Assembly (NCBI GenBank): GCA_020629455.1
Contig: JAHDDH010000002.1
Coordinates: 43,349 to 107,348, forward strand
Length of the DNA: 64,000 bases
From: Cytophagales bacterium
GTDB lineage: Bacteria; Bacteroidota; Bacteroidia; Cytophagales; Amoebophilaceae
Direction of reading: 5' to 3'
Shown in pieces: positions 1,430 to 30,738 of this stretch; position 1 is the first letter of the stretch; every line of letters begins with the position of its first letter. The translations under genes were made by a program, and so were the position numbers. The notes beneath the pieces were generated by a model. It saw only the letters and a list, made by a program, of their open reading frames with translations. It did no database searches and had not been told where the DNA came from.

Positions 1430-2731
1430 TCAAAATAGTTTGTAAATATCATTGAAAATCGTAAAAATGGCTAGAGACAATAAAATTAATATGCCTACTT
1501 TTTGCATAAAGAGCAAAAAACGAGTGGGTAAACTGCGCCCTGTGATCATTTCATATATCAAAAAAATACCATGACCACCATCCAAGGCGGGTATAGGCAA
1601 AAAATTGACAAAGGCTAAAACCATAGACAATAATCCAATCATTCGCCAAAAATGTATAAAATTAAATTGTGTACCGAAAATTTTGGCAATACCAATAGGA
1701 CCGCTTAAAGATTGGGTAGCAGATAATTTTCCTGTAAAAACTTTTACCAATCCTAGGGCATTTGTCCAAATAACATCAAAAGCCTTATGTGTACCCACCA
1801 TAATAGCATCTGCTAATCCATAAGATTTTTTTTCAACAGGCAATAAAATCTCAGGACAAAAACCTAGTTTTCCAGTGATAGGAATCATGATTTTTTTTAT
1901 GATTAAAGATGTCCCACGTGCAATCGTAATATCTACTGTTTGCCCTTTATATTGCTGTAAGCAATGGATTAATTCTTGAAAATAACGTGCAGATGTTCCA
2001 TGAATTGTCAATATTGTATCGCCAGGCTGGAGTCCTATGTTGGCTGCTATGCTATCTTTGATTACTTGCTTAACACTAAAGGGCTGTAATGGCTCTAAAA
2101 AAAAAGTCTTTTTAGAAGACAGCTTTTCTAAAAAATTTGCAGGCATATGTAACGTCAATGTTTGTCCATTTCTCAAAACAGTATAATAACCTCCGTTGAG
2201 CAGATGATAAGGATTCATCAAATCTGAAAATCGTGTAAAATCCTTGCCATTGATATCTAAAATTTTATCTCCTTTTTGAAAGCCTATAGTTTGGCCTAGG
2301 GTATGTGGGAAAATCCCATGTATATTCATATTTTTTTTAGAGATAAAACTTTCTCCACAAGCAAAAGTCAACACAATATAAATCAAAACACCTGTAATCA
2401 AATTGAATATAATACCACCCATGATTACCAGCCATCTTTGCCAAGCAGGTTTGGCAACAAACTCCCAAGGTTGAGGGTTTTTGATTTCTTTTTGCTCTAG
2501 ATATTCGTCTATCATACCTGCAATTTTCACAGATCCACCCAAAGGAATAGCACCTAACGCATATGATGTATGTCCTATTTTAAAGCTAAAAATTTTAGGA
2601 GGAAAGCCAATAGAAAATTTTTCTACACGCATCCCAAACCAACGGGCAAAAAGCATATGGCCTAGTTCATGCAATCCTACAATAATGGATAAGCCTACTA
2701 AAAATTGGATAATCATGATGAAAATATGCAT
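1430..2731 (-). CDS. rseP: RIP zinc metalloprotease RseP (site-2 protease, PDZ-containing)
   Basis: 433 aa. HELGH zinc motif at the N-terminus (GLHELGHMLFARWFG), internal PDZ-like region, and the C-terminal NFLPIPALDGGH motif typical of the S2P/M50 family. Confidence 0.9.
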   Translation of the reverse strand: MHIFIMIIQFLVGLSIIVGLHELGHMLFARWFGMRVEKFSIGFPPKIFSFKIGHTSYALGAIPLGGSVKIAGMIDEYLEQKEIKNPQPWEFVAKPAWQRWLVIMGGIIFNLITGVLIYIVLTFACGESFISKKNMNIHGIFPHTLGQTIGFQKGDKILDINGKDFTRFSDLMNPYHLLNGGYYTVLRNGQTLTLHMPANFLEKLSSKKTFFLEPLQPFSVKQVIKDSIAANIGLQPGDTILTIHGTSARYFQELIHCLQQYKGQTVDITIARGTSLIIKKIMIPITGKLGFCPEILLPVEKKSYGLADAIMVGTHKAFDVIWTNALGLVKVFTGKLSATQSLSGPIGIAKIFGTQFNFIHFWRMIGLLSMVLAFVNFLPIPALDGGHGIFLIYEMITGRSLPTRFLLFMQKVGILILLSLAIFTIFNDIYKLF

Positions 2732-2789
2732 ACAGAAAAAAATAACGATTAAAGGGGCAAAATTACTGGTTTATGACTGTTTTCCCAAA

Positions 2790-4286
2790 TCATTTCAAAC
2801 GGTAAGGCCAAAGGTCTTCTGCTATGGTACGATCATTGGCAACACGAGGGACTTTGTTTTGACCTCCTAATTTCCCTTTTTGCTTCATGTATAACAAAAA
2901 GGCATCTGGTTGTAACAAAGTAATCTTGGGGTGATCTAGTATTTTATCTTTAATTAAATCGTGATAATAACTATTCAACGTTTGTAAATGTACTGATAAA
3001 GTACTGGAAAATTGATCAAGGTCATGAGGCTGCTGTGCAAAAGCAATACACCATTCATGACAAGATTTTATGTTTGTATCTTTGCTGACATAAGGTGCCA
3101 CTGTAAATTCAATCAGATTTGCTTCAGGAAATTTTTTCAAAGCATATAGCATAGATTGCTCAATTTCTTCCACAATAACATGCTCTCCAAAAGCAGAAAT
3201 AAAATGTTTCGTTCGACCGGTGACAATAATTCTGTAAGGATTTAAGCTGATAAACTTAACAGTATCGCCTAGTAAATAACCCCAAAGCCCTGCGTTGCTG
3301 TTGAGTATGATAGCATAATGTACACCTTTCACCACTGCTGATAACGGAATACGTTTATTATTGTTTAATCGAAAATTTTCCAAATCTATAAACTCATAAA
3401 AAATACCACTATTTACTTGTAGCAATAATCCTGGTACATCTGTTTGGTCTTGAAAAGCAATAAAACCTTCCGAAGCAGGGTAGGTTTCAAGCATGGAAAT
3501 GGCTTGAGGCAAGGTATTACGCAATTTTTTTTCGTAGGGGTGGAAACTGACGCCCCCATGTACGAGCAAACAGAGATAACGCAATTTTTCTTTTGAACCT
3601 TTTGCCAAAATTCTATCCAAAAACATTTGTATCCATGGGGGAATCCCTGCGATTAAGGTCATTTTATCTGTGCCAATTTCATCTGATATTTTATCTAATT
3701 TTTTTTCCCAGTCTTCAATACAATTGGTAGCATAGCACGGCATATGATCTTTACGCAAGTATATAGGCACATGATGCTGAACAATACCAGACAAACGTCC
3801 TATGAAAATATTATTTTTTTTTTCTAATGAAGGAGACCCTGATAAAAAAATCATCTTTCCTTTCAAAAAATCAATCTTACCACTATAGTGTAGATAATAC
3901 AATAACGCATTTCTTGCACAGCCTATATGATTTTTGATAGATGCTTTGGTGATGGGAATATACTTATCACCAGCCGTTGTACCGGATGTTTTGGCTAAAT
4001 AAAGTGGTTTTCCAGGCCATAACACATTTGGTTGGCCATTTTTTATTTGTTGTATATAAGGTATGATAGATTCATAATGCACAATTGGCACATATTTTTT
4101 AAAATCTTGATAATTTTGAATTTTACCAAAATGATGATCTTGACCAAATTGAGTTTTACGACCTTTTTGTATAAGCTTTCGGAATATTTTTTGTTGATAT
4201 TTTATTGGATGACTTGTGTATCTCTTTTGCTTTTGCACCACCCAAACGGCAATCATCTTTGCCAATATTTTTTTTATTAAAAACAT
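2790..4286 (-). CDS. GH3 (auxin-responsive promoter) family acyl-adenylate-forming protein
   Basis: 498 aa. Shows LAKTSGTTAGDKYIPITK and the overall GH3-family layout seen in Bacteroidota homologues, recognised from memory of PF03321. Confidence 0.75.
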   Translation of the reverse strand: MFLIKKILAKMIAVWVVQKQKRYTSHPIKYQQKIFRKLIQKGRKTQFGQDHHFGKIQNYQDFKKYVPIVHYESIIPYIQQIKNGQPNVLWPGKPLYLAKTSGTTAGDKYIPITKASIKNHIGCARNALLYYLHYSGKIDFLKGKMIFLSGSPSLEKKNNIFIGRLSGIVQHHVPIYLRKDHMPCYATNCIEDWEKKLDKISDEIGTDKMTLIAGIPPWIQMFLDRILAKGSKEKLRYLCLLVHGGVSFHPYEKKLRNTLPQAISMLETYPASEGFIAFQDQTDVPGLLLQVNSGIFYEFIDLENFRLNNNKRIPLSAVVKGVHYAIILNSNAGLWGYLLGDTVKFISLNPYRIIVTGRTKHFISAFGEHVIVEEIEQSMLYALKKFPEANLIEFTVAPYVSKDTNIKSCHEWCIAFAQQPHDLDQFSSTLSVHLQTLNSYYHDLIKDKILDHPKITLLQPDAFLLYMKQKGKLGGQNKVPRVANDRTIAEDLWPYRLK

Positions 4287-6304: not shown

Positions 6305-7339
6305 TCAAATTTTAATCATATTCTTTTGAATCAAATGTTGTATATCTAAAATACCCACTAAATTTTCCTCAGTATCTAAAATAATAATATTATCAATTGT
6401 ATGCTTTTGAAATAAATATATGGCATCTGAAAGCAAGGCTTCTTCATATAAAAAAATAGGTACTTTATAATCAAAGGCTGCCATCTTTTTTTTTGTAATA
6501 TTTTCTTGTGTATTTTTTTCTAGATATCTTCTCAAATCACCATCAGTATATACACCTTTTATTTTTTCTGTTTCATCAACGATCACTATGATACCTAAAC
6601 CACTTTGCGTCATTTTTACCAAACTATAGGATAAAGTATCCTGTAAAGACACAATGGGCTTTACTTTAGTCATCACTTCTTTTACTTTTAAGGTCATTGC
6701 ATGAGTATCAGCAACAAATTGCTGCAGCCCCAACGTTGTAAAATGATTATCATTCATTTTTTGTAAAACCTTCCAAGGGACTGTACAAGCATGTACGCCT
6801 ATGTTTAAAGCATTGCGGATATGCTCTGTATTTCTTACAGATGAAAACATAATCTTGGCTGTGGACTGATATTTTTCAACCATGGCTACACATTGTTTGA
6901 GCAAAGCCAAAGCATCGTGCCCTTGATCTTGTAATCTACCCACCAACGGACATATATAAGTCGCCTTGGCAAGCATTGCCATATAAGCTTGTTGAAGGGT
7001 ATACACCAAGTGTATGTTGACTAAAAAACCATTATCTGTCAAATATTTACAAGCCTTAATGCCTTCGTTATTAACAGGAATTTTAAAAACAGTTTTGTTT
7101 TTTTTTAGTCCTAATCCTATCAATCGATGCGCTTCTTCGCATATACTCTCTGTACAATTACCCAAAGCTTCTATTTGTAAAATAGGCACTGTTGCTGCAA
7201 GCTGTAGTATAGTTTCATCAATATTTTTGATGCCCTCTTTATGCATAAAAGTAGGGGTAGTGGTAAGTCCTGTAATGACTTCTAAAGTAAAAGCTTCTTT
7301 GATTTCTTGCAGATTGGCAGAGTCTAAATAAAGTTCCAT
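6305..7339 (-). CDS. fusion protein: fructose-6-phosphate aldolase/transaldolase-like (FSA/TalC) TIM barrel plus C-terminal KdsD/KpsF-type CBS pair
   Basis: 344 aa. The N-terminus MELYLDSANLQEIK, GLTTTPT and TVFKIPVN (Schiff-base Lys context) closely parallel E. coli FSA (MELYLDTSD, GVTTNPS, VVKVPVT). The C-terminal ~120 aa carry GVYTDGDLRR and a second CBS repeat (LVGILDIQHLI), as in KdsD/KpsF. No SIS domain is present. Confidence 0.8.
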   Translation of the reverse strand: MELYLDSANLQEIKEAFTLEVITGLTTTPTFMHKEGIKNIDETILQLAATVPILQIEALGNCTESICEEAHRLIGLGLKKNKTVFKIPVNNEGIKACKYLTDNGFLVNIHLVYTLQQAYMAMLAKATYICPLVGRLQDQGHDALALLKQCVAMVEKYQSTAKIMFSSVRNTEHIRNALNIGVHACTVPWKVLQKMNDNHFTTLGLQQFVADTHAMTLKVKEVMTKVKPIVSLQDTLSYSLVKMTQSGLGIIVIVDETEKIKGVYTDGDLRRYLEKNTQENITKKKMAAFDYKVPIFLYEEALLSDAIYLFQKHTIDNIIILDTEENLVGILDIQHLIQKNMIKI

Positions 7340-7351
7340 GATATAATGCCT

Positions 7352-8179
7352 TTAAATATTTTGTAGGGTATGATAAATTGCTAATAAAGGTTTTAAAAAA
7401 TCTTCTAAATCGTATAATGACATCTGGCTGGCAGCATCGCACAACGCGTTTGAAGGATCAGGATGTACTTCAATAAATAAACCATCAATGCCAGTGGCTA
7501 CACTGGCACGTGCTAGTGTAGATAAATAGACTGGACTACCTCCTGTAGCGCATGCACTCGGTATACCGTATTTTCTGATACTATGCGTTACGTCAAATAC
7601 TACTGGATAACCTGTTTTTTGAAGATGAAAAAAACTTCTAGGGTCTACCACAAGATCATTGTAGCCAAAAGTATATCCTCTTTCAGTGAGAATAATTTGG
7701 TCATTACCACTATCGGTAATTTTTTTGATAGGATATTTGATATTTTCTGGGGCTAAAAATTGTCCATGTTTAATGTTGATAATTTTGTTTGTTTTAGCAG
7801 CATGGATCAATAAATCGGTTTGCATACACAAGTAAGCGGGTATTTGAATAATATCGACTACAGTTGCTACAGCTTTTGCTTGTGTTGGATAATGAATATC
7901 AGTCACTAAGGGAAGTTGAAAGTCTTTTTTAATTCTTTCTAACACCTTCAGCCCTTTTAGCATTCCTGGCCCTCGATAGTAGGACAAATCACTCCTATTG
8001 TCTTTTTGAAAAGAAGATTTATAAATGATGGGAATAGCTAATTTTTCTTGTAGTTTTGCCAAATATTCAGCTGTTTTCAACATCACTGTTGTATCTTCTA
8101 TCACACAAGGACCTGCGATTAAAAAAAATGATTGTCCACCCAACAAATGATGGGCTGCCGTAATAATTTTTTGAGACAT
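7352..8179 (-). CDS. kdsA: 3-deoxy-8-phosphooctulonate (KDO-8-P) synthase
   Basis: 275 aa. Aligns along its whole length to KdsA (KSSFQKDNRS, QIPAYLCMQTDL, VFDVTHS, GLFIEVHPDP). It has GPCVIE, with Cys where E. coli has Asn, which marks the metal-dependent subclass. Confidence 0.93.
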   Translation of the reverse strand: MSQKIITAAHHLLGGQSFFLIAGPCVIEDTTVMLKTAEYLAKLQEKLAIPIIYKSSFQKDNRSDLSYYRGPGMLKGLKVLERIKKDFQLPLVTDIHYPTQAKAVATVVDIIQIPAYLCMQTDLLIHAAKTNKIINIKHGQFLAPENIKYPIKKITDSGNDQIILTERGYTFGYNDLVVDPRSFFHLQKTGYPVVFDVTHSIRKYGIPSACATGGSPVYLSTLARASVATGIDGLFIEVHPDPSNALCDAASQMSLYDLEDFLKPLLAIYHTLQNI

Positions 8180-9675: not shown

Positions 9676-10812
9676 TTAAAATTTGTATGTTACATTTGCT
9701 TTTATAGCACCTGCATCATCATCTTTAGTATCTTTTACATGTTTTTTAATGCCATGTGTATATGCTAGGCCTAAGTTGATTTGCTTATTCACATGATATT
9801 TTATACCCAATGTTCCTTGAATACCCATGCTGTAGTCGTCATCTTTTCTTTTTTTATCATTTTCTTCGTCGCTGATGATGATCATTTTACCTGTCAAAGT
9901 GCTAGACAGCTTTTCTTCAATAATTTGATATTCTACAGTACCTGATGCTTGGATGACAGGAAGTAATACAGATTCTTCTAAATTATTAAAATCTATCACC
10001 AAGTCATTGGAAGCATTAACTCCTAAATAGCTACTAATACCCACACCATAGAGCCCAGAGCCTTTTAATATCAGTGCTTTTGGCATTACTTTCCATTCTC
10101 CATTAATTTTTACGCCATAGCCCCATAGGGTAATATCTTTTTCACTAATTGCATGATGATATTCCATAGGTCTTACTAAACCACTCATCTGTATGTGACC
10201 GCTTTCTCCATAAAATTTCAACTTTCCTGCAATGCCTGGAATCATTTTTTTGGCATAGGTTATTTCATTGTTTGTAGTGCCATTTGGTAATTTTTCAGGA
10301 TTATAAGCACTTACATTTTGTTCAATACTCAACGCATATGCTAAATGATCATTAATCTTATTATTGAATTGTACTTGTGCTTTATTGTTTCCATAGAAAA
10401 TACCTTCCGTAAGTCCAATAGTCCATTGGTTATACTGTGCGTAAAAGCTATTGATAGATAATGTATCATTTTTTATGAAAGTGTTTAAAAAAATTTTAGC
10501 TACTTCTTCGTCTTCTTCTCCTTTAGGAATACCAAATTCTAGTCCTAAATTTCCTACAATTTCATGGATCAAAAATTTTTGTTCGTTTGCTTTATTCTCT
10601 TTACCTATGTTTTCTACGTTAAGCCCTCTTTCGCTGTTGTTTTCTGCTAAATGAAAGTGTGTGTTGAAATTTAAGCTTCCTGAAGGAACCATATAGAGTG
10701 TATCTTTACTGGTTTCGGTAGAAAGTATATTATTTTCTTGTGCATAAACAGCTGTAGAAATCAAACAGCCTAAAGCAATTTTTGATAATTTTTTGGTAGA
10801 TATTTTTTTCAT
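9676..10812 (-). CDS. putative outer-membrane beta-barrel protein / porin-like
   Basis: 378 aa. N-terminal signal peptide (KLSKIALGCLISTAVYAQ), alternating beta-strand-like pattern and a C-terminal aromatic residue (VTYKF). No family recognised. Confidence 0.6.
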   Translation of the reverse strand: MKKISTKKLSKIALGCLISTAVYAQENNILSTETSKDTLYMVPSGSLNFNTHFHLAENNSERGLNVENIGKENKANEQKFLIHEIVGNLGLEFGIPKGEEDEEVAKIFLNTFIKNDTLSINSFYAQYNQWTIGLTEGIFYGNNKAQVQFNNKINDHLAYALSIEQNVSAYNPEKLPNGTTNNEITYAKKMIPGIAGKLKFYGESGHIQMSGLVRPMEYHHAISEKDITLWGYGVKINGEWKVMPKALILKGSGLYGVGISSYLGVNASNDLVIDFNNLEESVLLPVIQASGTVEYQIIEEKLSSTLTGKMIIISDEENDKKRKDDDYSMGIQGTLGIKYHVNKQINLGLAYTHGIKKHVKDTKDDDAGAIKANVTYKF

Positions 10813-10869
10813 TGTAGTATTTAAAAATTGGTAGTATTTGAAAAATTTGCGCTAATATAAAATTTATTT

Positions 10870-12330
10870 CTAATTATTCATAGAAACTAAAAATGCTTCA
10901 TTGTCTTGTGTGCCTTTCATTTTTTCTAATAAAAACTCCATGGCTTCCACAGCATTCATATCTGCCATAAATTTTCGTAAAACCCACATTTTTTCAAGTA
11001 CCTCTTTAGACAAAAGTAAATCTTCTCTTCTGGTGCCTGAACTAGGAATGTCAATAGCTGGATGTATCCTTCTATTGGCTACTTTACGATCTAGCTGCAA
11101 CTCCATATTGCCTGTTCCTTTGAACTCTTCAAAAATAACTTCATCCATTTTAGACCCTGTTTCTATAAGGGCAGTAGCCAATATCGTCAAAGATCCTCCA
11201 TCTTCTACATTACGGGCTGCGCCAAAAAATCTTTTAGGCTTGTGCAAAGCATGAGCGTCTACTCCACCGGAGAGTATTTTTCCAGAAGATGGAATAACAG
11301 TATTAAAAGCTCTAGCCAATCGTGTAATTGACTCTACTAAAATAACTACATCTTGCCCACACTCTACCATTCTCTTGGCTTTTTCTAAGACAAGATTGGC
11401 AATTTTCACATGTTGCTCTGCTTGTTTATCAAAAGTAGAAGAAATAACCTCTGCTTTTACGCTGCGCATCATATCAGTAACTTCTTCTGGTCTTTCATCA
11501 ATCAAAAGGATAATCAAATATACTTCAGGATGATTTTTGACAATAGCATTGGCAATTTCTTTCAATAAAGTGGTTTTACCTGTTTTTGGGGGTGCTACAA
11601 TCATGCCCCGTTGACCTTTTCCTATAGGAGAAAAAAGATCTAAAATACGCGTAGCATATTGTGTAGAAGTATGGCTTAGCTTTAATTTTTCTTGAGGGAA
11701 TAAAGGTGTTAGGTAATCAAAATGAGGTCTTTTTTTAAGGTCTTTTTTTTCTTTTCCATTAATTTTTTCAACCTTCAAAAGTGCTGCATATTTTTCTCCT
11801 TCTTTAGGAGATCTTACTCTTCCATGTACTGTGTCACCCGTTCTTAGTTCAAAAAGTTTTATTTGAGAAGGAGATACATAAATATCATCTGGGCTAGCTA
11901 AATAATTGTATTGAGGAGCTCTTAAAAATCCATAATTATCAGACATAATTTCTAAAACCCCTTCTCGCACTTTAAGAGGCTCTTTGGGTATAGTATTTTG
12001 ATGTGCTGTATTCATTTTAGTGGGTTTGGTGGGCATATTTTTTTTAGGTTTCACTAAAAATTTTTTAGGCTTTTGTTTGAATGATGATGAAACAGTAGAT
12101 AGTGTAGATTTTGGAGAATGATGATTGGATTGGTACGGTATTGTATCTTGATCTGTATGACGGGAATGATCATTGCCTTGATTGCTAGGAATCGTTGCTT
12201 GAACATCCAGTATTTTATAAATTAATTCTTCTTTAGTATGCATTGAATGCTGACGGAGTTGAAATTCTTCTAAAGCAATATTTTGTAGCTCTTCAATCGA
12301 TTTTGATTGTAATGATTCTATGTTATACAT
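10870..12330 (-). CDS. rho: transcription termination factor Rho with N-terminal insertion domain
   Basis: 486 aa. Carries the RNA-binding OB region [16 protein letters not shown]...[19 protein letters not shown], Walker [12 protein letters not shown] and a C-terminal RecA-like ATPase. About 75 aa of low-complexity insert lie between the N-terminal helical bundle and the OB fold. Confidence 0.96.
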
Positions 12331-15062: not shown

Positions 15063-16109
15063 ATGCATCTTGACAAAAAAAAAATTCTAAAAATATTACA
15101 TCCCAACAAAATTTGGGTACCTATCAGCATAGGCTTTCTCATCATCGGTTATTTATTGTTGAAGGATAAAAATTTCACATTTGATAATTTGATACGTATA
15201 CGTAATGCCCAATGGACCTATATTGGCTTGGCTTTGCTCACTATCTTGATCAGAGATATTGGTTATGCCTATCGAATCAAAACTTTGACTCATCAACAGT
15301 TGACCTGGAAAAAAAGTTTTTATGTCATTATTTTATGGGAATTTGCTTCTGCAGTAACACCATCTGTTGTAGGCGGTACTGCGGTAGCTATTTTTATTTT
15401 GCTCAAGGAAAAAATCAAACTTGGACAATCGATTGCTTATGTTATGCTAACAGCTATTTTAGATAACTTATTTTTTATCTGTACAGCACCATTAGCCTTT
15501 TTTTTATTGGGCGATAATATGTTTACAAATGTTACTACTTTATCTATCCGTTGGGCTTATAGTTTCAAAATCATATTTTGGATTAGCTATAGCTTAATTG
15601 CTTTGTATACATTAATGATGGCCTTAGCATTATTTTTTAAACCTATATTTTTTAAAAATATTTTAGTAAGAATTACACATATTAAAATTCTTAAAAAATG
15701 GAAAAGAGCAGCATATGCCCATGGCAAAGACATTATTCATTCTTCCACCACACTCAAAGGAAATACGATGGGGTATTGGATTAAAATTAGTATATCAACC
15801 ATCGGCATTTGGTGTGCCCGCTATATGATTCTCAACTTATTGATTGCTGCCTATACCAATGTAAGTCTGTCTGAACATATCACTATTTTTGGCAAACATA
15901 TTATGATGTGGGTCATGATGCTTATATCTCCTACACCTGGCAGTAGTGGTACAGCAGAATTTTTTTTTCAACAATTCTATGAAACAATTTTAGGCAACTA
16001 TACAATCATTACTGATTTGCTATGGCGATGTCTTACCTATTATCTTTATTTGATACTGGGAGCAATATTTTTACCAAAATGGCTTAAAAAATACCAATCA
16101 TCATTATAA
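15063..16109 (+). CDS. flippase-like / lysylphosphatidylglycerol-synthase TM-region family membrane protein (UPF0104)
   Basis: 348 aa with about 8 predicted TM segments. It has the duplicated P..GG..E-type motif of this family (VTPSVVGGTAVA and SPTPGSSGTAEFF). Confidence 0.55.
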   Translation: MHLDKKKILKILHPNKIWVPISIGFLIIGYLLLKDKNFTFDNLIRIRNAQWTYIGLALLTILIRDIGYAYRIKTLTHQQLTWKKSFYVIILWEFASAVTPSVVGGTAVAIFILLKEKIKLGQSIAYVMLTAILDNLFFICTAPLAFFLLGDNMFTNVTTLSIRWAYSFKIIFWISYSLIALYTLMMALALFFKPIFFKNILVRITHIKILKKWKRAAYAHGKDIIHSSTTLKGNTMGYWIKISISTIGIWCARYMILNLLIAAYTNVSLSEHITIFGKHIMMWVMMLISPTPGSSGTAEFFFQQFYETILGNYTIITDLLWRCLTYYLYLILGAIFLPKWLKKYQSSL

Positions 16110-16121
16110 AACAAACGCTAT

Positions 16122-16775
16122 ATGTCTTCAGAAAACTATACACAAACATTCCAACATCTTACAAAAAAATTAGCCAACATCAAAGCATATATTTTTGACT
16201 GGGACGGTGTATTCAACGAAGGCATCAAAAGCATACAAATGCATAGCACTTTTGCTGAAATAGATGCCATGGGTATCAATTTACTACGCTTTCAGCACTT
16301 TCTATATGATCAAATGCCCATCATTAGCATCATGACAGGCGCTGATAACCTCAATGCCAAAGCCTTTGCAAAAAGAGAAAATTTCAACAGTGTATACACT
16401 AAAATCAAAGATAAAAAACAGGCTCTCGTACATTTTATGGAAAAATTTCAACTCAAAAAAGAAGCCATTGCTTTTTTTTTTGATGATGTAATTGATCTAT
16501 CAGTCGCCCAAGCCGTAGGGCTACGCATATGCGTTCGGCATAAAAATACGTATGACCATTTCTTAACTCACTATATCCAGCAAAAGCAATGGGCCGATTA
16601 CATTACCAAAGGTCACGGAGGACAAAACGCTATCCGAGAAACAACAGAATTATTTTTAAAACTATCCCAAAAATACGAAACCGTACTCTCCCATCGTATT
16701 GACTATACACCCTCTTACCAAAAATATCTAGCCCAAAAAACAACTATACAAACACAATTTTATACCACTGCATAA
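16122..16775 (+). CDS. HAD-IIIA hydrolase, KdsC (KDO-8-P phosphatase)-like
   Basis: 217 aa. IKAYIFDWDGVFNEG, IMTGADNLNAKAFAKR, FFFDDVIDLSVAQAVGL and ADYITKGHGGQNAIRE align block by block with E. coli KdsC (LLILDVDGVLSDG, IITGRKAKLVEDR, YVGDDLIDWPVMEKVGL, ADYVTRIAGGRGAVRE). Confidence 0.6.
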   Translation: MSSENYTQTFQHLTKKLANIKAYIFDWDGVFNEGIKSIQMHSTFAEIDAMGINLLRFQHFLYDQMPIISIMTGADNLNAKAFAKRENFNSVYTKIKDKKQALVHFMEKFQLKKEAIAFFFDDVIDLSVAQAVGLRICVRHKNTYDHFLTHYIQQKQWADYITKGHGGQNAIRETTELFLKLSQKYETVLSHRIDYTPSYQKYLAQKTTIQTQFYTTA

Positions 16776-19777: not shown

Positions 19778-20089
19778 TTAAATGTATAATAATAGTGTAA
19801 TGATTAAAATAAAATAAAAGCAGTAAAATAAAAAAAGACACATAATCAAAAAACGCTCGATACTTCTTCTATAAATCATATGCCAAACCATATGGCAAAG
19901 CACCAAAGGGGAAAAAAATAAAACCAACATCCCATAAAAAATAGTTGATTGGTGACATGTAAAAAAATATAAAGACACTTGAAAGGGCAGTCGAGCGTAA
20001 ACATATAACCAAAAACACCAGCACACAAACAATACAACATATAATATACGCCAAGCAAAAAAAGCATTATTTTTTTTGAACAAGCACAT
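19778..20089 (-). CDS. hypothetical small membrane protein (possibly a non-coding relic)
   Basis: 103 aa, Cys/Trp/Phe-rich and hydrophobic. All three minus-strand frames are open here (see track ORFs 19869-20054 and 19876-20067). The open frame may therefore reflect T-rich composition rather than coding. Confidence 0.3.
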   Translation of the reverse strand: MCLFKKNNAFFAWRILYVVLFVCWCFWLYVYARLPFQVSLYFFTCHQSTIFYGMLVLFFSPLVLCHMVWHMIYRRSIERFLIMCLFLFYCFYFILIITLLLYI

Positions 20090-20384
20090 CCTTGAGAGAT
20101 ATTGTTTGGAATTTTTGATGGATTTTGAAGGCCATCATGAGAAACATAGCGGTTTCACACAAAGCAATGATCAGAGTAAAGAGCAAAAAAAGGAGGGTAA
20201 TTTCTCTTTGATGACTATGGATATGGGCAAAGACCATACAATTTAAATGAATGGCTATGAACATCATTTCAATACCCAAAAGCATGAAAAGAAAATTTTT
20301 TTTGACAAAAAATATCGCAATACCCAGAAAAAATAAAACATGACTAGTGAATAAAACCAAAGAAATTTCATGAATAAAAAACAC
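20067..20384 (-). CDS. NuoK / ND4L-like small membrane protein (NADH-quinone oxidoreductase subunit K family), orphan
   Basis: 105 aa with 3 TM segments. KKNFLFMLLGIEMMFIAIHL and LIIALCETAMFLMMAFKIHQKFQTISLKDV align with E. coli NuoK [20 protein letters not shown] and [29 protein letters not shown]. Both conserved membrane glutamates are included. Confidence 0.7.
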   Translation of the reverse strand: MFFIHEISLVLFTSHVLFFLGIAIFFVKKNFLFMLLGIEMMFIAIHLNCMVFAHIHSHQREITLLFLLFTLIIALCETAMFLMMAFKIHQKFQTISLKDVLVQKK

Positions 20385-20396
20385 CTTTTTAATAAT

Positions 20397-22901
20397 TTAT
20401 GCTGTGATATATACTCTCTTGACCCGATCACTCATTTTGGTAAACACCTCATAAGCAATGGTATTTTGCGCCTTTGCTCCCAAAAATACATCATATGTTT
20501 CTCCAAAAATAATCACCTCATCACCCACCTCCACAGGAATTCCTGTAACATCAATCATACAAGTATCCATACAAATATAGCCTACAATAGGCACTATAGC
20601 ACCTTTGACCCACACCTTTCCTTGACCATCACTCAAACTTCTGCTCAAACCATCGGCATAGCCAATAGCAATAATGGCTAAAGTCATTGCTTGCATAACA
20701 ATACCCTTTCTATGATAACCTACCGTAACATTAGCAGGAATTGATTTGATTTGTAAGATGATTGTTTTGAGTGTATTCACCACACGTAAATCCTTTTGTA
20801 CCATTGTATCTACACCTACGCCATATAAACCAATACCTAATCGTACCATATCCCATTGATACGCTGGAAAACGAATAATTCCTGCAGTATTCAATAAATG
20901 TTTTAACAAAGTTTTTTGTAATCTTTTTTCAAAAAAACAGACAGCATCCAAAAATTTTTGGGCTTGTGCATGCGTAAAATCATCATGTGATGGAAGATCA
21001 GCCGATGCCAAATGACTGAGAATACCAACCGTTTGGATATATGCATTTTCTTGAAGAATTTTCAACACAGCAGTAAATTCATTAGCAGCAATTCCTAAAC
21101 GATGCATGCCTGTATCTATTTTTAAATGTATTGCCATAGGTTGGGCATGCTTTTTAGAAAAAATATCCAATACTTTCAAAAGTGCCAAACTATATACTTG
21201 CATCGTCAAATCATAGGTCAATACCTTTTCAAAACAAAATGGTGTAACGTTCATCACTAAAATAGGCAAACGAATACCTTTTTTTCTTAATAAAATACCT
21301 TCATCTGTATAAGCTACTCCTAAATAGTCTACTTGATGATAAGCTAATAGTTGAGCTACCTCAAAAGTACTGCTGCCATAAGCAGCTGCTTTTACCATGG
21401 CCATCAATTGAGTAGAACGTTTGAGCTTTTGTCTAAAAAAATAAAAATTATGAATCAGAGCCTTTAAATTAACTTCTAAAACCGTGTGGTGTATTTTTTT
21501 TTGTAATGCATCTACTACTTGCTCCAAAGCAAAAACACGCGCTCCTTTAATCAAAATAAAACGATCTTTCAAAAGAGGCATTTCTTTTAAAAAATGATCC
21601 ACACTTGTATATGTTTGAAAATCCAAACCAGTAAAACAAGCACGATGCTCACTGATCAAAGGCCCTATACCAATACCATAGCGTACCCCATATTTTCGGC
21701 ACAAAGCAGCCACTTTGGCATACAGTAATGCAGCAGACCAACCCGTTTGTAACATATCAGATAAAATGACCATCTTCTCTTTCCTAGCATAAGGCAACAT
21801 AGCTTCAAGCGCTGCTACAAAACCCACAAAATCATTATTATAAGTATCATCTAAAAGATAACATCCATGCATGCCCTCCTTCAACGTAAGCCTCATAGCC
21901 ACAGGCTGCAAAGTATACAACAGAGATGGTAGACGAGCAACCATGGAAGGATATAAAATAAGACAACATACCAAAACATGTATTGCATTTTCCAAAAGAC
22001 TAGCCTCTTGAAAAGGCAAACGAAAGGTATGTTGATCACCATGATACCTAATCGTGATATCTGTAGTACCATAAGCAGTCGATATTTTTTGTACTATAAA
22101 AACCGCTTGAGAAGATTTTTGATAAGACCATGCCATTCGTTGATGCACTGAATATTGTTGTTGTAACACATGATGAATAAGCTGATGATCTTGACAATAA
22201 ATAATAGTCTTACAATTCTGAAATAAATGTGCTTTTTCTTTTATTTTTTGAGTTTGGGAAATAAAATATGCGTCATGTGCTGAGCCAATATTGGTAAAAA
22301 TACCTACTGAAGGTCGGAGTATATGCCACAGGCGTTGCATTTCTCCTGGTTGAGAGATACCTGCTTCAAAAATTCCTAATTGATGCTTCTCATGCATGGG
22401 CAACACTGAACAAGGAACCCCAACTTGTGAGTTATAGCTCTGGGGACTTTTAATCACATAATATGACGTAGCCAAACATTGACTCAACCATTCTTTGACA
22501 ATAGTTTTTCCATTGCTGCCAGTAATGGCAATTAGAGGAATTGAAAATTTTTTTCTGTGTGCCTGTGCCAAGGCCTGTAATGCTTTGATACTAGAAGATA
22601 CTTGTATGACTGTTGCTTCGGGTACAAGTATTTGTAAAGCAGGGAATTCCTTCTCTATCAAAAAACAACGAACCCCTTGGCCATAAACAAATGATATATA
22701 ATCATGTCCATCATGATGATCACCTTGAATGGCAATAAACATGGTATGATGATGATTATCTCCTATAAGCTTTCTACTATCAAAAACAATAGTATGTATA
22801 GAAGCTGTATGTCTGTATTGACATAAATTCCCTTGGGTAATTTCTTGAATACTAACAGGAGAAAAAAAAAAAGAAGAGGGATGATCTTCTTGGTTGATCA
22901 T
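20397..22901 (-). CDS. bifunctional UDP-N-acetylmuramoyl-tripeptide--D-alanyl-D-alanine ligase / alanine racemase (MurF-Alr fusion)
   Basis: 834 aa. The N-terminal half has the Mur ligase P-loop ITGSNGKT and MurF-like domains. The C-terminal ~370 aa have the racemase PLP lysine context AMVKAAAYGSS, then IGYADGLSR and PIVGYICMD. Confidence 0.9.
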   Translation of the reverse strand: MINQEDHPSSFFFSPVSIQEITQGNLCQYRHTASIHTIVFDSRKLIGDNHHHTMFIAIQGDHHDGHDYISFVYGQGVRCFLIEKEFPALQILVPEATVIQVSSSIKALQALAQAHRKKFSIPLIAITGSNGKTIVKEWLSQCLATSYYVIKSPQSYNSQVGVPCSVLPMHEKHQLGIFEAGISQPGEMQRLWHILRPSVGIFTNIGSAHDAYFISQTQKIKEKAHLFQNCKTIIYCQDHQLIHHVLQQQYSVHQRMAWSYQKSSQAVFIVQKISTAYGTTDITIRYHGDQHTFRLPFQEASLLENAIHVLVCCLILYPSMVARLPSLLYTLQPVAMRLTLKEGMHGCYLLDDTYNNDFVGFVAALEAMLPYARKEKMVILSDMLQTGWSAALLYAKVAALCRKYGVRYGIGIGPLISEHRACFTGLDFQTYTSVDHFLKEMPLLKDRFILIKGARVFALEQVVDALQKKIHHTVLEVNLKALIHNFYFFRQKLKRSTQLMAMVKAAAYGSSTFEVAQLLAYHQVDYLGVAYTDEGILLRKKGIRLPILVMNVTPFCFEKVLTYDLTMQVYSLALLKVLDIFSKKHAQPMAIHLKIDTGMHRLGIAANEFTAVLKILQENAYIQTVGILSHLASADLPSHDDFTHAQAQKFLDAVCFFEKRLQKTLLKHLLNTAGIIRFPAYQWDMVRLGIGLYGVGVDTMVQKDLRVVNTLKTIILQIKSIPANVTVGYHRKGIVMQAMTLAIIAIGYADGLSRSLSDGQGKVWVKGAIVPIVGYICMDTCMIDVTGIPVEVGDEVIIFGETYDVFLGAKAQNTIAYEVFTKMSDRVKRVYITA

Positions 22902-24594: not shown

Positions 24595-26445
24595 ATGGTT
24601 ATTACTTCTGATATGCGTACTTATTTTAAAATTTTATCCTATGCCAAGCCTTTGGGCAAGCTTATGAGTGGTTATTTTATATCTACTCTTTTAAATATTG
24701 TATTTGGACTAGTCAATTTTAGTCTTTTAATTCCATTGTTTGAAATTTTATTTGATAAAAATAAAGTAGTACAACATCTACAAGCAGTACATGAATTTCC
24801 AAAATTCCAGTTCAATTTACGCTATTGCAAAGAGGTATTTTATCATTATTACTGTAGTATTATTCAAAAATATGGTGATTTAGGGGCTTTATATAGCATG
24901 TGTCTTTTTTTTTTAGTGGCTGTATTTACAGCCAATCTTTTTCGCTATTTGGCTGTTATTATCATGGCTAAAATCCGTATCAGAACGATTTGTGCTTTAC
25001 GTCAAAAAATATTTCAAAAAATCATGCAACTGCATTTGGGCTATTTTACGCATCATCAACAGGGATATATTATTTCAAAAGCAACGCATGATGTACATGA
25101 AGTAGAATATTTTGTAGTAAATAGTTTAAAAAGTCTTTTCAAAGATCCTATCCAAATCATCAGTTTTTTTGTTGTATTGTTTTACCTTTCTTACCAGTTG
25201 ACTTTGTTTACTATCCTTATCTTACCTGTGGCTGGTTTTTGTATTGGGAAAATTGTGAAGAGTATTCGAAAAAAAGCCAAAAAAGGACAGGAATCTATGG
25301 GGCGTATTGTAAGTATACTACATGAAACATTATTTGGCATACGTATCATCAAAGCATTTACAGCACAAAAAAATATGATCAAAAAATTCAAAAAAGAAAA
25401 TGATCATTATGCACGCACACATATTTCCATCAGTCGCAGACATGAATTGAGCGCCCCTATTTCAGAATTTTTTGGGGTTTTGGTAGTAGTAATCATCTTA
25501 GGCTATGGTGGCCGTTTGGTATTACAAGCGCATGCGCCTTTATCAGCTAGTGAATTTATGGTGTATATCATTTTGTTTTCTCAAGTCATATCACCAGCCA
25601 AATCCATTGTACATACAATCAGCAATATGCAAAGAGGATTGGCAGCAGCACACAGGGTCTTTGATTTAATCAATACAAAACCATTGATTCAAGATCATCC
25701 AACAGCAAAGACGATTACACATTTTTCAGAAAAAATCTGTTTTCATCAAGTCACATTTGCTTACGAAAAACAAACTGTACTACAAAATATTGACCTTACT
25801 ATTTCCAAAGGAAAAACCATTGCCTTGGTAGGGCCTTCTGGCGGAGGAAAATCAACATTGGTAGATCTTATCCCAAGATTCTACACACCACAAAAAGGAT
25901 ATATCACCATCGATGGCCAACGCCTCGAAAATTATACACTCCAAAGTTTACGATCACTCATGGGCATTGTTACACAGGAGTCTATCCTATTTCATGATAC
26001 GGTTTGGAATAATATTATTTTTGGTCATTCTTTGGCAGTGACAGAGTCACAAGTAGTGCAGGCAGCTCAAATGGCTTATGCACATGATTTTATCATGCAA
26101 CTGCCACAAGGTTATCAAACATTAATGGGAGAAAGAGGCATTAAATTGTCAGGAGGACAAAGACAACGCATTTGTATTGCCCGAGCTTTGCTTAAAAATC
26201 CACCAATCCTTATTTTGGATGAAGCCACTTCTGCTCTAGATACTGCTTCGGAAAAATGGGTACAAGAGGCTTTAGATTGTTTGATGAAAAACAGAACAGT
26301 GATTGTGATTGCACATAGGCTCAGCACGATTCAGCAGGCGGATGAAATTGTGGTGATTGATCAAGGAAAAATTATAGAAAGAGGAAAGCATGCACAGTTG
26401 ATGCAAAAAAAAGGATTGTATCAACAGTTGAGAGAAGGGTATTAA
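24595..26445 (+). CDS. ABC transporter, fused permease/ATPase (MsbA-like lipid exporter family)
   Basis: 616 aa. Six-TM N-terminal domain, Walker A GPSGGGKST, signature LSGGQRQR and Walker B ILILDEATSALD. The true start may be the internal Met at 24613. Confidence 0.9.
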   Translation: MVITSDMRTYFKILSYAKPLGKLMSGYFISTLLNIVFGLVNFSLLIPLFEILFDKNKVVQHLQAVHEFPKFQFNLRYCKEVFYHYYCSIIQKYGDLGALYSMCLFFLVAVFTANLFRYLAVIIMAKIRIRTICALRQKIFQKIMQLHLGYFTHHQQGYIISKATHDVHEVEYFVVNSLKSLFKDPIQIISFFVVLFYLSYQLTLFTILILPVAGFCIGKIVKSIRKKAKKGQESMGRIVSILHETLFGIRIIKAFTAQKNMIKKFKKENDHYARTHISISRRHELSAPISEFFGVLVVVIILGYGGRLVLQAHAPLSASEFMVYIILFSQVISPAKSIVHTISNMQRGLAAAHRVFDLINTKPLIQDHPTAKTITHFSEKICFHQVTFAYEKQTVLQNIDLTISKGKTIALVGPSGGGKSTLVDLIPRFYTPQKGYITIDGQRLENYTLQSLRSLMGIVTQESILFHDTVWNNIIFGHSLAVTESQVVQAAQMAYAHDFIMQLPQGYQTLMGERGIKLSGGQRQRICIARALLKNPPILILDEATSALDTASEKWVQEALDCLMKNRTVIVIAHRLSTIQQADEIVVIDQGKIIERGKHAQLMQKKGLYQQLREGY

Positions 26446-27741: not shown

Positions 27742-27938
27742 TGACACCCCCACCCCATCCTGCGCCACATCTTTTGTATACTTTAATTACAGCTAAGCAA
27801 ACCTAGACTCAGGCACAGGCCGTAGCATATTTTTGAAGAAAAAAAATAATGATATCGTTTCATAATTGATTTATTTAAAAGGTTAAATTTTATTTATTTG
27901 CTAAAATAATTTTTTCCCTAAAATCTCCCAAGCCCACT

Positions 27939-29628: not shown

Positions 29629-30738
29629 TCAAGTTTGTAAATATTGCATCAGCAAACGAGCGGCGTATTGTGCTGGTGGTTGGGTTGTTTGAAGCTGTGC
29701 TTTTACTTTTGTGTAATGATGACGTTGTTTTTGTCTATAAGCTTGGGTTAAAATTTTTTTGAGATGAAAACATACATATGTTGGACATAGATCTTTTTGA
29801 ATGAGCTCTGTCACAATATTGTCTTGTGCAAGAATATTGACTAAACCAATATATTTTATCTTTAAAAAACAACGTGCCAAAAAATAAGTAAACGCATAAG
29901 TTTTATAAACCAAAATTTGTGGTACATCAAACAACAATGTCTCTAACGTAGCAGTACCAGAAGTGACTACAGCCGCATGGGCATGAGATAATAGGGTATA
30001 AGATTGCTCAACTAAAATTTTTACGTTATATCCTCGAGTTATTTTTTGATACAAAGCAATTGGCAAGCTATCAACAGCAGCAATACAAAATTGATAAGCA
30101 GGAAAATGAGAAATGATTTTTACAAGTATAGGCAATACAGCCTGTACTTCCTGCCAACGACTGCCTGGTAAAAAGGCAATAATTTTTTTTTTAGGATCGA
30201 GTTGATGTTTCGAAAAAAAATCAGTCATGGGCTGAAAATGCTCAATATTGTGCACTAACGGATGGCCAATATAGGCTACAGGATAATGATATTGTGCGTA
30301 AAATGCTTTTTCAAAAGGCAAAATCGTGAACATATGGTCCACATCCCTTTGTATATTTTTGATTCTTCTACGGTGCCAAGCCCAAATTTTAGGACTGATG
30401 TAATAACAAGTTTTGATACAATTTTTTTTGGCAAACCGAGCCATACGTAAATTAAACCCTGCAAAATCAATGAGTATTATTGCGTGTGGCTGGAAGGCTA
30501 AGATATCTTGTTGACATTTTTTATAAAGACGAAAAAAACGAAAAAAATACCTTATAAACCGAAAACCCATCATGGCGATGGATTGATAATGCTGAAATAA
30601 TACAACGCCAGTGCATTGCATCTGAACACCACCAATACCTCTTATTTTTGCTTTGGGATCTTTTTGAAAAATAGCTTTGGCTAAATCAGCACCATAAAGA
30701 TCACCTGACTTCTCTCCTGCTATGATGTAATAACGCAT
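29629..30738 (-). CDS. lpxB: lipid-A-disaccharide synthase
   Basis: 369 aa. N-terminus MRYYIIAGEKSGDLYGA, FLPGSR and AAVVTSGTATLE are conserved LpxB blocks. Confidence 0.92.
   Translation of the reverse strand: MRYYIIAGEKSGDLYGADLAKAIFQKDPKAKIRGIGGVQMQCTGVVLFQHYQSIAMMGFRFIRYFFRFFRLYKKCQQDILAFQPHAIILIDFAGFNLRMARFAKKNCIKTCYYISPKIWAWHRRRIKNIQRDVDHMFTILPFEKAFYAQYHYPVAYIGHPLVHNIEHFQPMTDFFSKHQLDPKKKIIAFLPGSRWQEVQAVLPILVKIISHFPAYQFCIAAVDSLPIALYQKITRGYNVKILVEQSYTLLSHAHAAVVTSGTATLETLLFDVPQILVYKTYAFTYFLARCFLKIKYIGLVNILAQDNIVTELIQKDLCPTYVCFHLKKILTQAYRQKQRHHYTKVKAQLQTTQPPAQYAARLLMQYLQT

Follow-up and report, generated by a model that had tools for sequence, protein, structure and literature searches.

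A transaldolase-type barrel fused to a KdsD-type CBS pair is encoded in Kdo operons of Bacteroidota and may supply arabinose 5-phosphate

Directly downstream of kdsA, a Cytophagales bacterium carries a gene for a protein in which a barrel of the transaldolase family is followed by a CBS pair of the KdsD/KpsF type. This TAL-CBS architecture is genuine, conserved and previously uncharacterized, and the fusion protein probably supplies or controls arabinose 5-phosphate (A5P), the precursor of Kdo. To our knowledge, almost all Gram-negative bacteria require Kdo for their LPS, and the only biosynthetic origin described for A5P is the SIS isomerase KdsD/GutQ/KpsF, which in its canonical form consists of a SIS domain and two CBS domains. 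The explanation that we prefer, and to which we give slightly better than even chances, is that the fusion replaces KdsD and makes A5P by aldol chemistry, with the regulatory module of KdsD kept.

The features discussed below are collected in Table 1; the window is the whole stretch of contig JAHDDH010000002.1 that was analyzed (64 kb). A first-pass annotation, made from the letters of the window, had recognized the combination of barrel and CBS pair without a SIS domain but had also warned of a frameshift or assembly artefact joining two genes. Pfam and NCBIfam profile searches confirmed TAL_FSA plus a CBS pair and gave no match to a SIS domain in the fusion. An artefact is ruled out: the fusion is encoded by a single ORF in at least 593 species genomes, the majority of them Bacteroidota and one a complete chromosome labelled Desulfobacterales, and more than 120 full-length homologues of ∼340 aa contain both Pfam domains (protein clusters, 55–64% identity). 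Carriers include the complete genomes CP075895.1 (Chitinophagaceae LGM1), OZ245737.1 and CP070768.1 and those of Thermonema rossianum DSM 10300 and Thermoflexibacter ruber DSM 9560. The first-pass annotation had taken the architecture to be undescribed, and full-text literature searches yielded no description of a TAL-CBS protein or of a KdsD-independent route to A5P. The annotation had left the strand of the gene unstated, which is minus in the ORF list.

Table 1. Features of the 64-kb window and of the fusion gene (positions are those of the window)
Feature	Position	Strand	Basis
TAL-CBS fusion gene	6305..7339	−	ORF, 344 aa, ATG start, TGA stop at 6305-6307
N-terminal transaldolase-family TIM barrel, aa 1-216	6692..7339	−	Pfam PF00923, Foldseek
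C-terminal CBS pair, KdsD/KpsF type, aa 217-344	6308..6691	−	Pfam CBS, NCBIfam and PDB matches
CBS1	~6518-6685	−	part of C-terminal CBS pair
CBS2	~6320-6484	−	part of C-terminal CBS pair
Lys86 codon, predicted Schiff-base lysine	7082..7084	−	aligns with FSA Lys85 and TacTal Lys86; 120/120, 125/125
Thr28 codon, Asn in transaldolases/FSA	7256..7258	−	GLTTTPT vs GVTTNPS; T in 120/120, 125/125
His110 codon, Thr in transaldolases/FSA	7010..7012	−	VNIHLVY vs TNVTLIF; H in 119/120, 125/125
Cys130-Pro131-Leu132 codons	6944..6952	−	CPLVGR vs SPFVGR (transaldolases), APYVNR (FSA)
kdsA (Kdo-8-phosphate synthase)	7352..8179	−	NF003543, 345 bits vs cut-off 242
KdsC-like HAD phosphatase	16122..16775	+	best NCBIfam match KdsC NF007019, 69 bits, below cut-off
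MsbA-like lipid A exporter	24595..26445	+	TIGR02203, 495 bits, under equivalog cut-off 602
lpxB (lipid-A disaccharide synthase)	29629..30738	−	TIGR00215, 238 bits vs cut-off 190

The N-terminal part of the protein (aa 3-221) matches Pfam TAL_FSA (PF00923) with an E-value of 1.5e-35 and 123 bits against a cut-off of 27, covering profile positions 1-261 of 285. In an AF2 model of the fusion (pLDDT 92.1, pTM 0.72), Foldseek aligned the barrel with the structures 1vpx, 3s0c and 3r8r at a TM(target) of 0.92-0.95 and an rmsd of 1.3-1.5 Å. Profile match, Schiff-base lysine on strand β4 plus Asp6 on the N-terminal strand and small-transaldolase fold together place the fusion within the transaldolase/FSA superfamily. 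The best NCBIfam match of this part is fsa_talC_mipB (TIGR00875), whose 150 bits stay under the equivalog cut-off of 246, and the FSA-type models reach 88-95 bits where 214-306 would be required. The FSA part of the earlier FSA/TalC-class assignment is not supported as stated, as the barrel is nearer to true small transaldolases (6e-32 in a phmmer search of the PDB versus 3.5e-13 for FSA) and its catalytic details are not FSA-like. Its motif parallels with FsaA nevertheless held against the E. coli sequence: MELYLDSAN corresponds to MELYLDTSD, GLTTTPT to GVTTNPS and FKIPV to VKVPV, which aligns Lys86 with the Schiff-base residue Lys85.

The closest structural relatives are small transaldolases of the TalC/MipB type (subfamily 5) from B. 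subtilis (3R8R), T. maritima (1VPX) and Thermoplasma acidophilum (3S0C). They share the TIM-barrel fold at ∼31-33% identity and have Lys86, Asp6, Glu57/60, Asn108 and the phosphate-binding residues Arg135/Ser167/Arg169 in common with the fusion, which differs from them by its additional C-terminal CBS pair and by a Kdo-operon rather than a pentose-phosphate gene context. E. coli FsaA (1L6W) belongs to the same family and shares the MELYLD N terminus but shows only ∼25% identity to the barrel, lacks a CBS pair and is not known to take part in Kdo synthesis in the cell. Its residues Gln59, Thr109 and catalytic Tyr131 are Glu57, His110 and Leu132 in the fusion.

Pfam CBS (PF00571) matches the C terminus in two stretches (E-value 3.2e-13), and the AF2 secondary structure of aa 219-338 fits two tandem CBS units that form a β-α-β-β-α pair. 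The best NCBIfam matches of this part are kpsF, KdsD and GutQ with 64, 58 and 49 bits, while other CBS-containing families reach at most 31; the kpsF and KdsD models align to the fusion by their C-terminal 115-125 positions only. Since these three lead the CBS-containing families twofold in bit score, a generic CBS pair unrelated to KdsD is ruled out. When E. coli KdsD was used as a tblastn query, the match was confined to positions 6314-6691 of the window, and PDB matches of the CBS part include the A5P-isomerase CBS fragments 4o9k, 3k2v and 3fna. The block GVYTDGDLRR (aa 262-271), likened in the first-pass annotation to GIFTDGDLRR of E. coli KdsD, indeed parallels the real sequence, and as G-[VI]-[FY]-T-D-G-D-L-R-R it is invariant in the family (120 + 125 members). 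The fusion thus has the C-terminal CBS pair with the GxFTDGDLRR block and the Kdo linkage in common with KdsD/KpsF/GutQ. The SIS domain is theirs alone, and therefore the catalytic chemistry of the fusion cannot equal that of KdsD. Identity to any of the KdsD CBS pairs compared amounts to only 25-31%, and no recent donor was found among them. Judged from this divergence, the kept module reflects an old relationship and not a recent swap.

Conservation of the predicted active site was scored in two sets of family members, 120 and then a further 125, with four reference small transaldolases for comparison. D6, T28, E57, K86, N108, L132, R135, S167 and R169 are invariant in both sets, and Asp6 aligns with Asp6 of both FSA and TacTal. 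Four positions depart from the residues shared by the reference enzymes (N28T, T110H, S130C and F132L); as far as we know, Asn28, Thr110, Ser130 and Phe132 are conserved across transaldolases generally. Leu132 is found in every member and Cys130 in 110/120 and 118/125, with threonine in the remainder, so that the Ser-Pro-Phe of transaldolases and the Ala-Pro-Tyr of FSA have become Cys-Pro-Leu. By alignment, the four replaced residues would contact the donor moiety and the catalytic water: Thr28 and Cys130 presumably correspond to TalB Asn35 and Ser176, which bind the C3-OH and C1-OH of the donor in the TalB-DHA complex, and we take His110 to occupy the position of the transaldolase/FSA threonine that holds the catalytic water. 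Position 129/130 hydrogen-bonds the donor C1-OH, and the exchange A129S in FSA increased kcat/Km for DHA 17-fold (PMC3962088).

Of the residue set of bona fide transaldolases (Asn28/Thr110/Ser130/Phe132 plus Glu60), the fusion retains only the glutamate, as Glu57; likewise, the FSA pair Tyr131 and Gln59 is replaced by L132 and E57. With the four donor- and water-contacting residues exchanged, it is therefore predicted to be neither a housekeeping transaldolase nor an FSA. The first of these conclusions is also supported by locus L076, where a canonical small Tal (N28, T110, S130, F132) coexists with the fusion 9 kb away. A sequence search revealed no other transaldolase in the 64-kb window. 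With Glu57 in place of Gln59 and Leu132 in place of the catalytic Tyr131, the active site does not point to a simple FSA acting on free glycolaldehyde and G3P.

In the window, kdsA lies upstream of the fusion on the same strand, and the gap of 12 nt to the start codon reported at first was verified. NCBIfam matches likewise support the KdsC-like phosphatase and lpxB noted there; the presence of lpxB indicates that the host makes LPS. The KdsC-like gene is located ∼9 kb away from the fusion here and directly after it in relatives. To look beyond a single window, two independent locus samples were analyzed, 76 genome loci with the fusion and 71 KdsA-anchored metagenome loci. In the former, 43 loci have kdsA immediately upstream and 60 have the gene of a KdsC-like phosphatase as the next one downstream, while KdsB occurs at 31 and WaaA at 17 of them; in the latter, the fusion directly follows kdsA in 48. 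The order kdsA, fusion, kdsC-like gene, often extended by kdsB and waaA, thus recurs in Bacteroidota in both samples, and the suspected Kdo link is more than a coincidence of one locus. The fusion precedes the kdsC-like gene in relatives just as kdsD precedes the adjacent kdsC in E. coli. The operon holds every Kdo step except KdsD, which suggests that the fusion fills this gap. In ∼40% of loci kdsA is not adjacent, and a few fusions, such as that of Thermoflexibacter ruber (L009), adjoin neither kdsA nor a kdsC-like gene.

Of the 160 loci fetched, 128 bear the fusion, and none of these has a SIS isomerase within 6-10 kb; tblastn searches of the 64-kb window with E. coli KdsD and 150 diverse SIS-isomerase representatives detected no SIS/KdsD-like sequence apart from the CBS match described above. 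Apparent SIS matches in 31 fusion loci turned out to be KdsB, because KdsB and SIS are fused in the query P0256. Other lineages have a SIS-only isomerase beside kdsA (L086-L089) or a SIS isomerase fused to KdsB directly after it (L173). Where a SIS isomerase lies beside kdsA, the fusion is missing, and the reverse is also true in the loci examined, indicating that the same slot is filled by either one. Bacteroidota-type isomerases, both characterized and predicted, are SIS-only proteins of ∼200 aa. The B. fragilis enzyme (3ETN), which has a SIS fold, no CBS domain and no sequence relationship to the fusion barrel, represents a Bacteroidota answer to the same step with catalytic and CBS modules uncoupled. 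Its gene is unlinked to Kdo genes, so that a distant SIS gene could coexist with the fusion; as a search query, this isomerase found matches in Bacteroides and Phocaeicola only.

Based on these observations, we propose that the fusion is an active class-I (Schiff-base) enzyme of the aldolase/transaldolase family dedicated to Kdo biosynthesis. The barrel would have taken over the place of the SIS domain of KdsD, with the CBS regulatory pair and the operon position retained, and would provide A5P for KdsA by aldol chemistry instead of aldose-ketose isomerization. The CBS pair may tune the flux via a nucleotide-type effector, the binding of which is also presumed for KdsD. With A5P as the presumed product, A5P or R5P could be bound through a Schiff base at C1, being isosteric with fructose-6-phosphate minus C1H2OH. 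Three routes to A5P are candidates for the exact reaction: a 2-epimerization between R5P and A5P, in which retro-aldol cleavage leaves a glycolaldehyde enamine on the enzyme and G3P is then re-added; a condensation of glycolaldehyde and G3P; or a reaction in which an octulose-8-phosphate donor gives up A5P. Schiff-base-mediated isomerization of Ru5P to A5P was considered and rejected, as it would leave a stable Heyns-type lysine adduct.

As the first-pass annotation had stated, glycolaldehyde and G3P can be joined to A5P by E. coli FSA, and TalB F178Y yields both A5P and R5P, so that the transaldolase fold can handle both C2 epimers (PMC9947464). FsaA has been employed as an “arabinose-5-phosphate aldolase” in synthetic pathways. 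Free glycolaldehyde is scarce and we know of no common metabolite that would be its obvious donor, which leaves the aldolase variant without a clear substrate source. The lack of the FSA-type catalytic tyrosine counts against an aldol-based origin of A5P, and we also count the loci with the fusion away from kdsA and the low identity of the CBS pair to KdsD against a replacement. In its most specific form, the proposal is a cofactor-free R5P/A5P 2-epimerase that replaces the SIS isomerase in much of Bacteroidota and in at least one Desulfobacterales-labelled lineage under the control of a KdsD-derived, nucleotide-binding CBS gate, a long shot in our estimation. Here, G3P would leave the C1 Schiff base by retro-aldol cleavage and be re-added on the opposite face of the glycolaldehyde enamine, and the CBS pair would gate the first committed step of Kdo synthesis.

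If the replacement is true, a widespread and strictly conserved enzyme of a different fold occupies the KdsD slot, a non-orthologous displacement in a textbook pathway that would explain why CMP-Kdo modules look “incomplete” when metabolism is reconstructed from Bacteroidota genomes and MAGs and would offer a lineage-specific target in LPS biogenesis. The transaldolase/FSA family, which biocatalysis and synthetic pathways for glycolaldehyde assimilation through A5P employ heavily, would also gain a new reaction specificity. The CBS pair of the fusion is a natural experiment on what the KdsD CBS domains sense.

Among the other explanations, we regard as rather unlikely, though the most serious, an accessory or regulatory Kdo-pathway enzyme that works beside a canonical SIS-only isomerase encoded elsewhere and modulates A5P or pentose-phosphate levels or senses a metabolite. 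The Bacteroidota isomerase would then have lost its CBS pair, which is now found on a transaldolase-like protein that, for example, drains or buffers A5P. The SIS-only form of the Bacteroidota-type isomerases is consistent with this, an unlinked gene like that of B. fragilis would escape a survey of ±10 kb, and some close relatives (L123, L171 and L172) lack the fusion in their kdsA-kdsC-kdsB cluster. However, the isomerase is the only Kdo step absent from the operon, fusion and kdsA-adjacent SIS isomerase are mutually exclusive in the loci examined, and invariant catalytic residues in a donor pocket that was remodelled and then frozen are easier to reconcile with a defined new reaction than with a sensor.

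An ordinary pentose-phosphate transaldolase (S7P + G3P ↔ E4P + F6P) with an acquired CBS tail seems very improbable to us, even if the supply of Ru5P from the pentose-phosphate pathway for Kdo synthesis could be the sole reason for co-transcription with kdsA. The nearest solved structures are true small transaldolases, the phosphate site and the residues Glu57, Asp6, Lys86 and Asn108 resemble those of transaldolases, and the window encodes no second transaldolase; but the four donor-side exchanges are near-uniform in ∼245 members, the TIGR00875 score falls far under its equivalog cut-off, L076 has a canonical small Tal alongside the fusion, and it is the Kdo pathway in particular that is indicated by the CBS pair of KdsD type and by the flanking kdsA and kdsC genes. 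Just as improbable is a modified octulosonate branch, in which the fusion would form or split a sugar phosphate related to Kdo instead of supplying A5P, for example in an aldol reaction of Kdo-8-P or an octulose-8-P that depends on pyruvate or DHA. The exchanges S130C, N28T and T110H at donor contacts would also suit another three-carbon donor such as pyruvate, and ∼21 loci carry an aminotransferase and an Fe-alcohol-dehydrogenase gene upstream of kdsA, reminiscent of Kdo8N synthesis. Yet many fusion operons lack these two genes, a Kdo-8-P aldolase beside kdsA would create a futile cycle, and the CBS pair together with the position before kdsC parallels KdsD and not a tailoring enzyme.

Regarding individual SIS representatives, P0348 (SIS plus CBS), considered as a possible Bacteroidota KdsD, turned out to be from Oligoflexales/Pseudobacteriovorax. 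The SIS-only P0273 is located in a capsule- or sialic-acid-like cluster, and P0281 is found on a contig of 1.7 kb.

The TAL-CBS fusion lies 12 nt beyond the end of kdsA, as the first-pass annotation had stated. Pfam places TAL_FSA at residues 3-221 (E 1.5e-35), in addition to two CBS stretches, and detects no SIS domain in the protein, which bears out the earlier reading of a TAL/FSA barrel joined to a CBS pair. The best NCBIfam model for the N-terminal half is fsa_talC_mipB (150 bits vs an equivalog cut-off of 246). The last 125 residues score best against the C-terminal portions of the models for kpsF (64 bits), KdsD (58 bits) and GutQ (49 bits), with all other CBS-containing families at 31 bits or below; no NCBIfam model reaches its own cut-off. 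Alignment with the actual E. coli KdsD and FsaA sequences confirmed every motif quoted previously: GVYTDGDLRR matches GIFTDGDLRR of KdsD, and Lys86 aligns with the Schiff-base Lys85 of FSA. The CBS pair contains the G-h-h-T-x-x-D ribose-binding pattern and has probably retained any control by effectors to which KdsD is subject. The KdsC-like phosphatase and lpxB genes were likewise recovered, the former 9 kb from the fusion, on the opposite strand and not adjacent to it. No SIS-like sequence was found elsewhere in the 64-kb window.

Features of the window
Feature	Position	Strand	Evidence or remark
TAL-CBS fusion gene, 344 aa, one ORF	6305..7339	-	ORF listing
kdsA	7352..8179	-	NF003543, 345 bits
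Membrane protein, directly upstream of kdsC-like gene	15063-16109	+	weak likeness to glucosaminyl-phosphatidylglycerol flippase, 53 bits, far under cut-off
KdsC-like phosphatase	16122-16775	+	as first annotated
Bifunctional MurF (D-Ala-D-Ala adding enzyme)-alanine racemase fusion, 834 aa	20397-22901	-	NF008897, 967 bits
Rpn-family recombination-promoting nuclease/putative transposase	26506-27768	-	between msbA-like gene and menD
lpxB	29629-30738	-	as first annotated

By sequence and predicted structure, the N-terminal domain is a small transaldolase. A phmmer search of the PDB ranked B. subtilis Tal (6e-32) and Thermoplasma acidophilum transaldolase (TacTal, 4e-29) ahead of FSA (3.5e-13), and Foldseek matched the AF2 model (pLDDT 92.1) to 1vpx, 3s0c and 3r8r with TM 0.92-0.95 and rmsd 1.3-1.5 Å. 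The fusion shares its catalytic core with small transaldolases, namely Asp6, Glu57 (TacTal Glu60), Lys86, Asn108 and the residues Arg135, Ser167 and Arg169 of the phosphate site, whereas FSA has Gln in place of Glu57. Four positions differ: Asn28, Thr110, Ser130 and Phe132, identical in the four small transaldolases aligned (Asn, Thr, Ala and Tyr in FSA), are replaced by Thr, His, Cys and Leu in the fusion family. Thr28 and Leu132 occur in 120/120 and His110 in 119/120 members of the protein set, and each of the three in 125/125 sequences translated from loci; Cys130 is found in 110/120 and 118/125, respectively, the remainder being Thr. The replaced positions are the sites that read the donor fragment. 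In the TalB-dihydroxyacetone complex, the donor C3-OH is bound by Asn35 and the catalytic water is held by Thr156, and Phe or Tyr at position 178 determines whether the enzyme behaves as a transaldolase or an aldolase. Position 129/130 hydrogen-bonds the donor C1-OH, and the FSA A129S exchange raises kcat/Km for dihydroxyacetone 17-fold (PMC3962088). The enzyme is thus almost certainly active; it is predicted to recognize a sugar phosphate of the usual carbonyl-to-phosphate geometry but with a donor moiety other than dihydroxyacetone.

We called and clustered ORFs in the best 80 genome loci, 76 of which were evaluable. The gene immediately upstream on the same strand is kdsA in 43/76, and the one immediately downstream encodes a KdsC-like HAD phosphatase in 60/76; KdsB (318 bits) is encoded in 31 loci, and 17 have WaaA (184 bits), the Kdo transferase. 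Typical gene orders are waaA-kdsB-kdsA-FUSION-kdsC and aminotransferase-FeADH-kdsA-FUSION-kdsC-kdsB. In a second, independent sample of JGI metagenome contigs picked by KdsA rather than by the fusion, the fusion directly follows kdsA in 48 of 71 evaluable loci, usually followed by a kdsC-like gene and often by kdsB. The operon therefore covers CMP-Kdo synthesis and transfer in full, with the sole exception of an A5P (D-arabinose-5-phosphate) isomerase, and the fusion occupies the same position as E. coli kdsD, directly before kdsC. In about 21 loci, kdsA is immediately preceded by genes for a PLP aminotransferase of the DegT/LegC type and an iron-type alcohol dehydrogenase (among them L024, L026, L030, L034, L038, L042, L057, L062, L063, L077 and L079; e.g., L026 6368-7576, L068 7275-8354). 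This pair resembles Shewanella KdnA/KdnB (Kdo to 8-amino-Kdo), so the Chitinophagales-type carriers may make Kdo8N.

Of the 160 loci fetched, 128 bear the fusion, and in none of these does a SIS isomerase lie within 6-10 kb. The converse is seen in other lineages: L086-L089 have no TAL-CBS gene, and the start of their kdsA is overlapped by a SIS-only isomerase gene (in L086, 10001-10588, 195 aa without CBS, overlapping kdsA at 10539-11354 by ~50 nt). This lineage has T9SS-tail proteins, and its KdsA is 37% identical to that of the window, compared with 56-69% for fusion-bearing genomes. The metagenome contig L173, also devoid of TAL-CBS, encodes a 392-aa KdsB cytidylyltransferase-SIS isomerase fusion directly after kdsA (2629-3807, protein P0256), a Rosetta-stone link that ties the SIS isomerase to CMP-Kdo synthesis and shows another filler of the same operon slot.

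A5P bound via a C1 Schiff base would be isosteric with F6P bound via C2, minus the C1H2OH group, and the family's residue changes cluster exactly where that group would be missing. FsaA has been used as an "arabinose-5-phosphate aldolase" on glycolaldehyde and G3P, and TalB F178Y yields A5P and its C2 epimer R5P (PMC9947464). This isostery and the A5P chemistry known for the fold lead us to favor an A5P-forming enzyme, which we regard as somewhat probable. Among three candidate reactions, the one we prefer would be R5P-A5P 2-epimerization by retro-aldol cleavage and re-addition; proceeding without free glycolaldehyde or enamine protonation, it would be consistent with Leu132. Second in preference would be condensation of glycolaldehyde with G3P, with His110 as acid-base catalyst. 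As a third, A5P could be released from D-glycero-D-ido-octulose-8-P, which transketolase can make from G6P (PMC5854111), but this fits poorly with the altered donor contacts. If the fusion does prove to make A5P, LPS biogenesis would gain a new enzyme at one of its classical, essential steps.

The main rival, an accessory or regulatory enzyme coexisting with an unlinked SIS-only isomerase, draws on B. fragilis, whose SIS-only isomerase lies away from the Kdo genes; we consider it unlikely. A plain CBS-regulated transaldolase is distinctly improbable given the changes at 28/110/130/132. Moreover, in a Flavobacteriales MAG (L076) a canonical small Tal (223 aa, 19935-20606), complete with the four standard residues, is encoded 9 kb past the fusion on its downstream side; in that genome at least, the fusion therefore does not serve as the housekeeping transaldolase. 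Tailoring or catabolism of Kdo-related sugars runs against the operon logic and appears quite doubtful.

A protein search retrieved over 120 clusters (334-353 aa, 55-64% identity), all PF00923 plus PF00571, and scanning one genome per species gave relatives in at least 593 genomes; a frameshift or assembly artifact as the source of the fusion is thereby ruled out. Homologs carry automatic names only ("transaldolase family protein", "CBS domain-containing protein", "TalC/MipB family F6P aldolase"), and full-text searching found no description of a transaldolase-CBS architecture. The fusion belongs to the transaldolase family and is new in its architecture, active-site signature and pathway context. 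Among the matches listed, carriers are overwhelmingly Bacteroidota: Cytophagales, Chitinophagales, Saprospiraceae and, as MAGs, some Flavobacteriales and Bacteroidales. Thermonema rossianum and Thermoflexibacter ruber are among the isolates. The label Desulfobacterales is attached to several MAGs and to one complete chromosome (CP070768.1), and SAR324 to one MAG. The waaA-kdsB-kdsA-fusion-kdsC-like operon is present in that 3.4 Mb chromosome (L174, 867366-888388) and in MAGs L007, L013, L015, L017-L019, L021, L028 and L049, labeled Desulfobacterales/Deltaproteobacteria and, in one case, SAR324. KdsA of these loci is 59-64% identical to Bacteroidota KdsA, and their operons reflect either transfer or mislabeled taxonomy. 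The window's own fusion departs from the family consensus at near-invariant non-catalytic sites (F264Y, D335H, G20E, G125K) and by a one-residue insertion at 276, and the window has 33% G+C, features in keeping with a fast-evolving Cytophagales-like lineage that may be host-associated.
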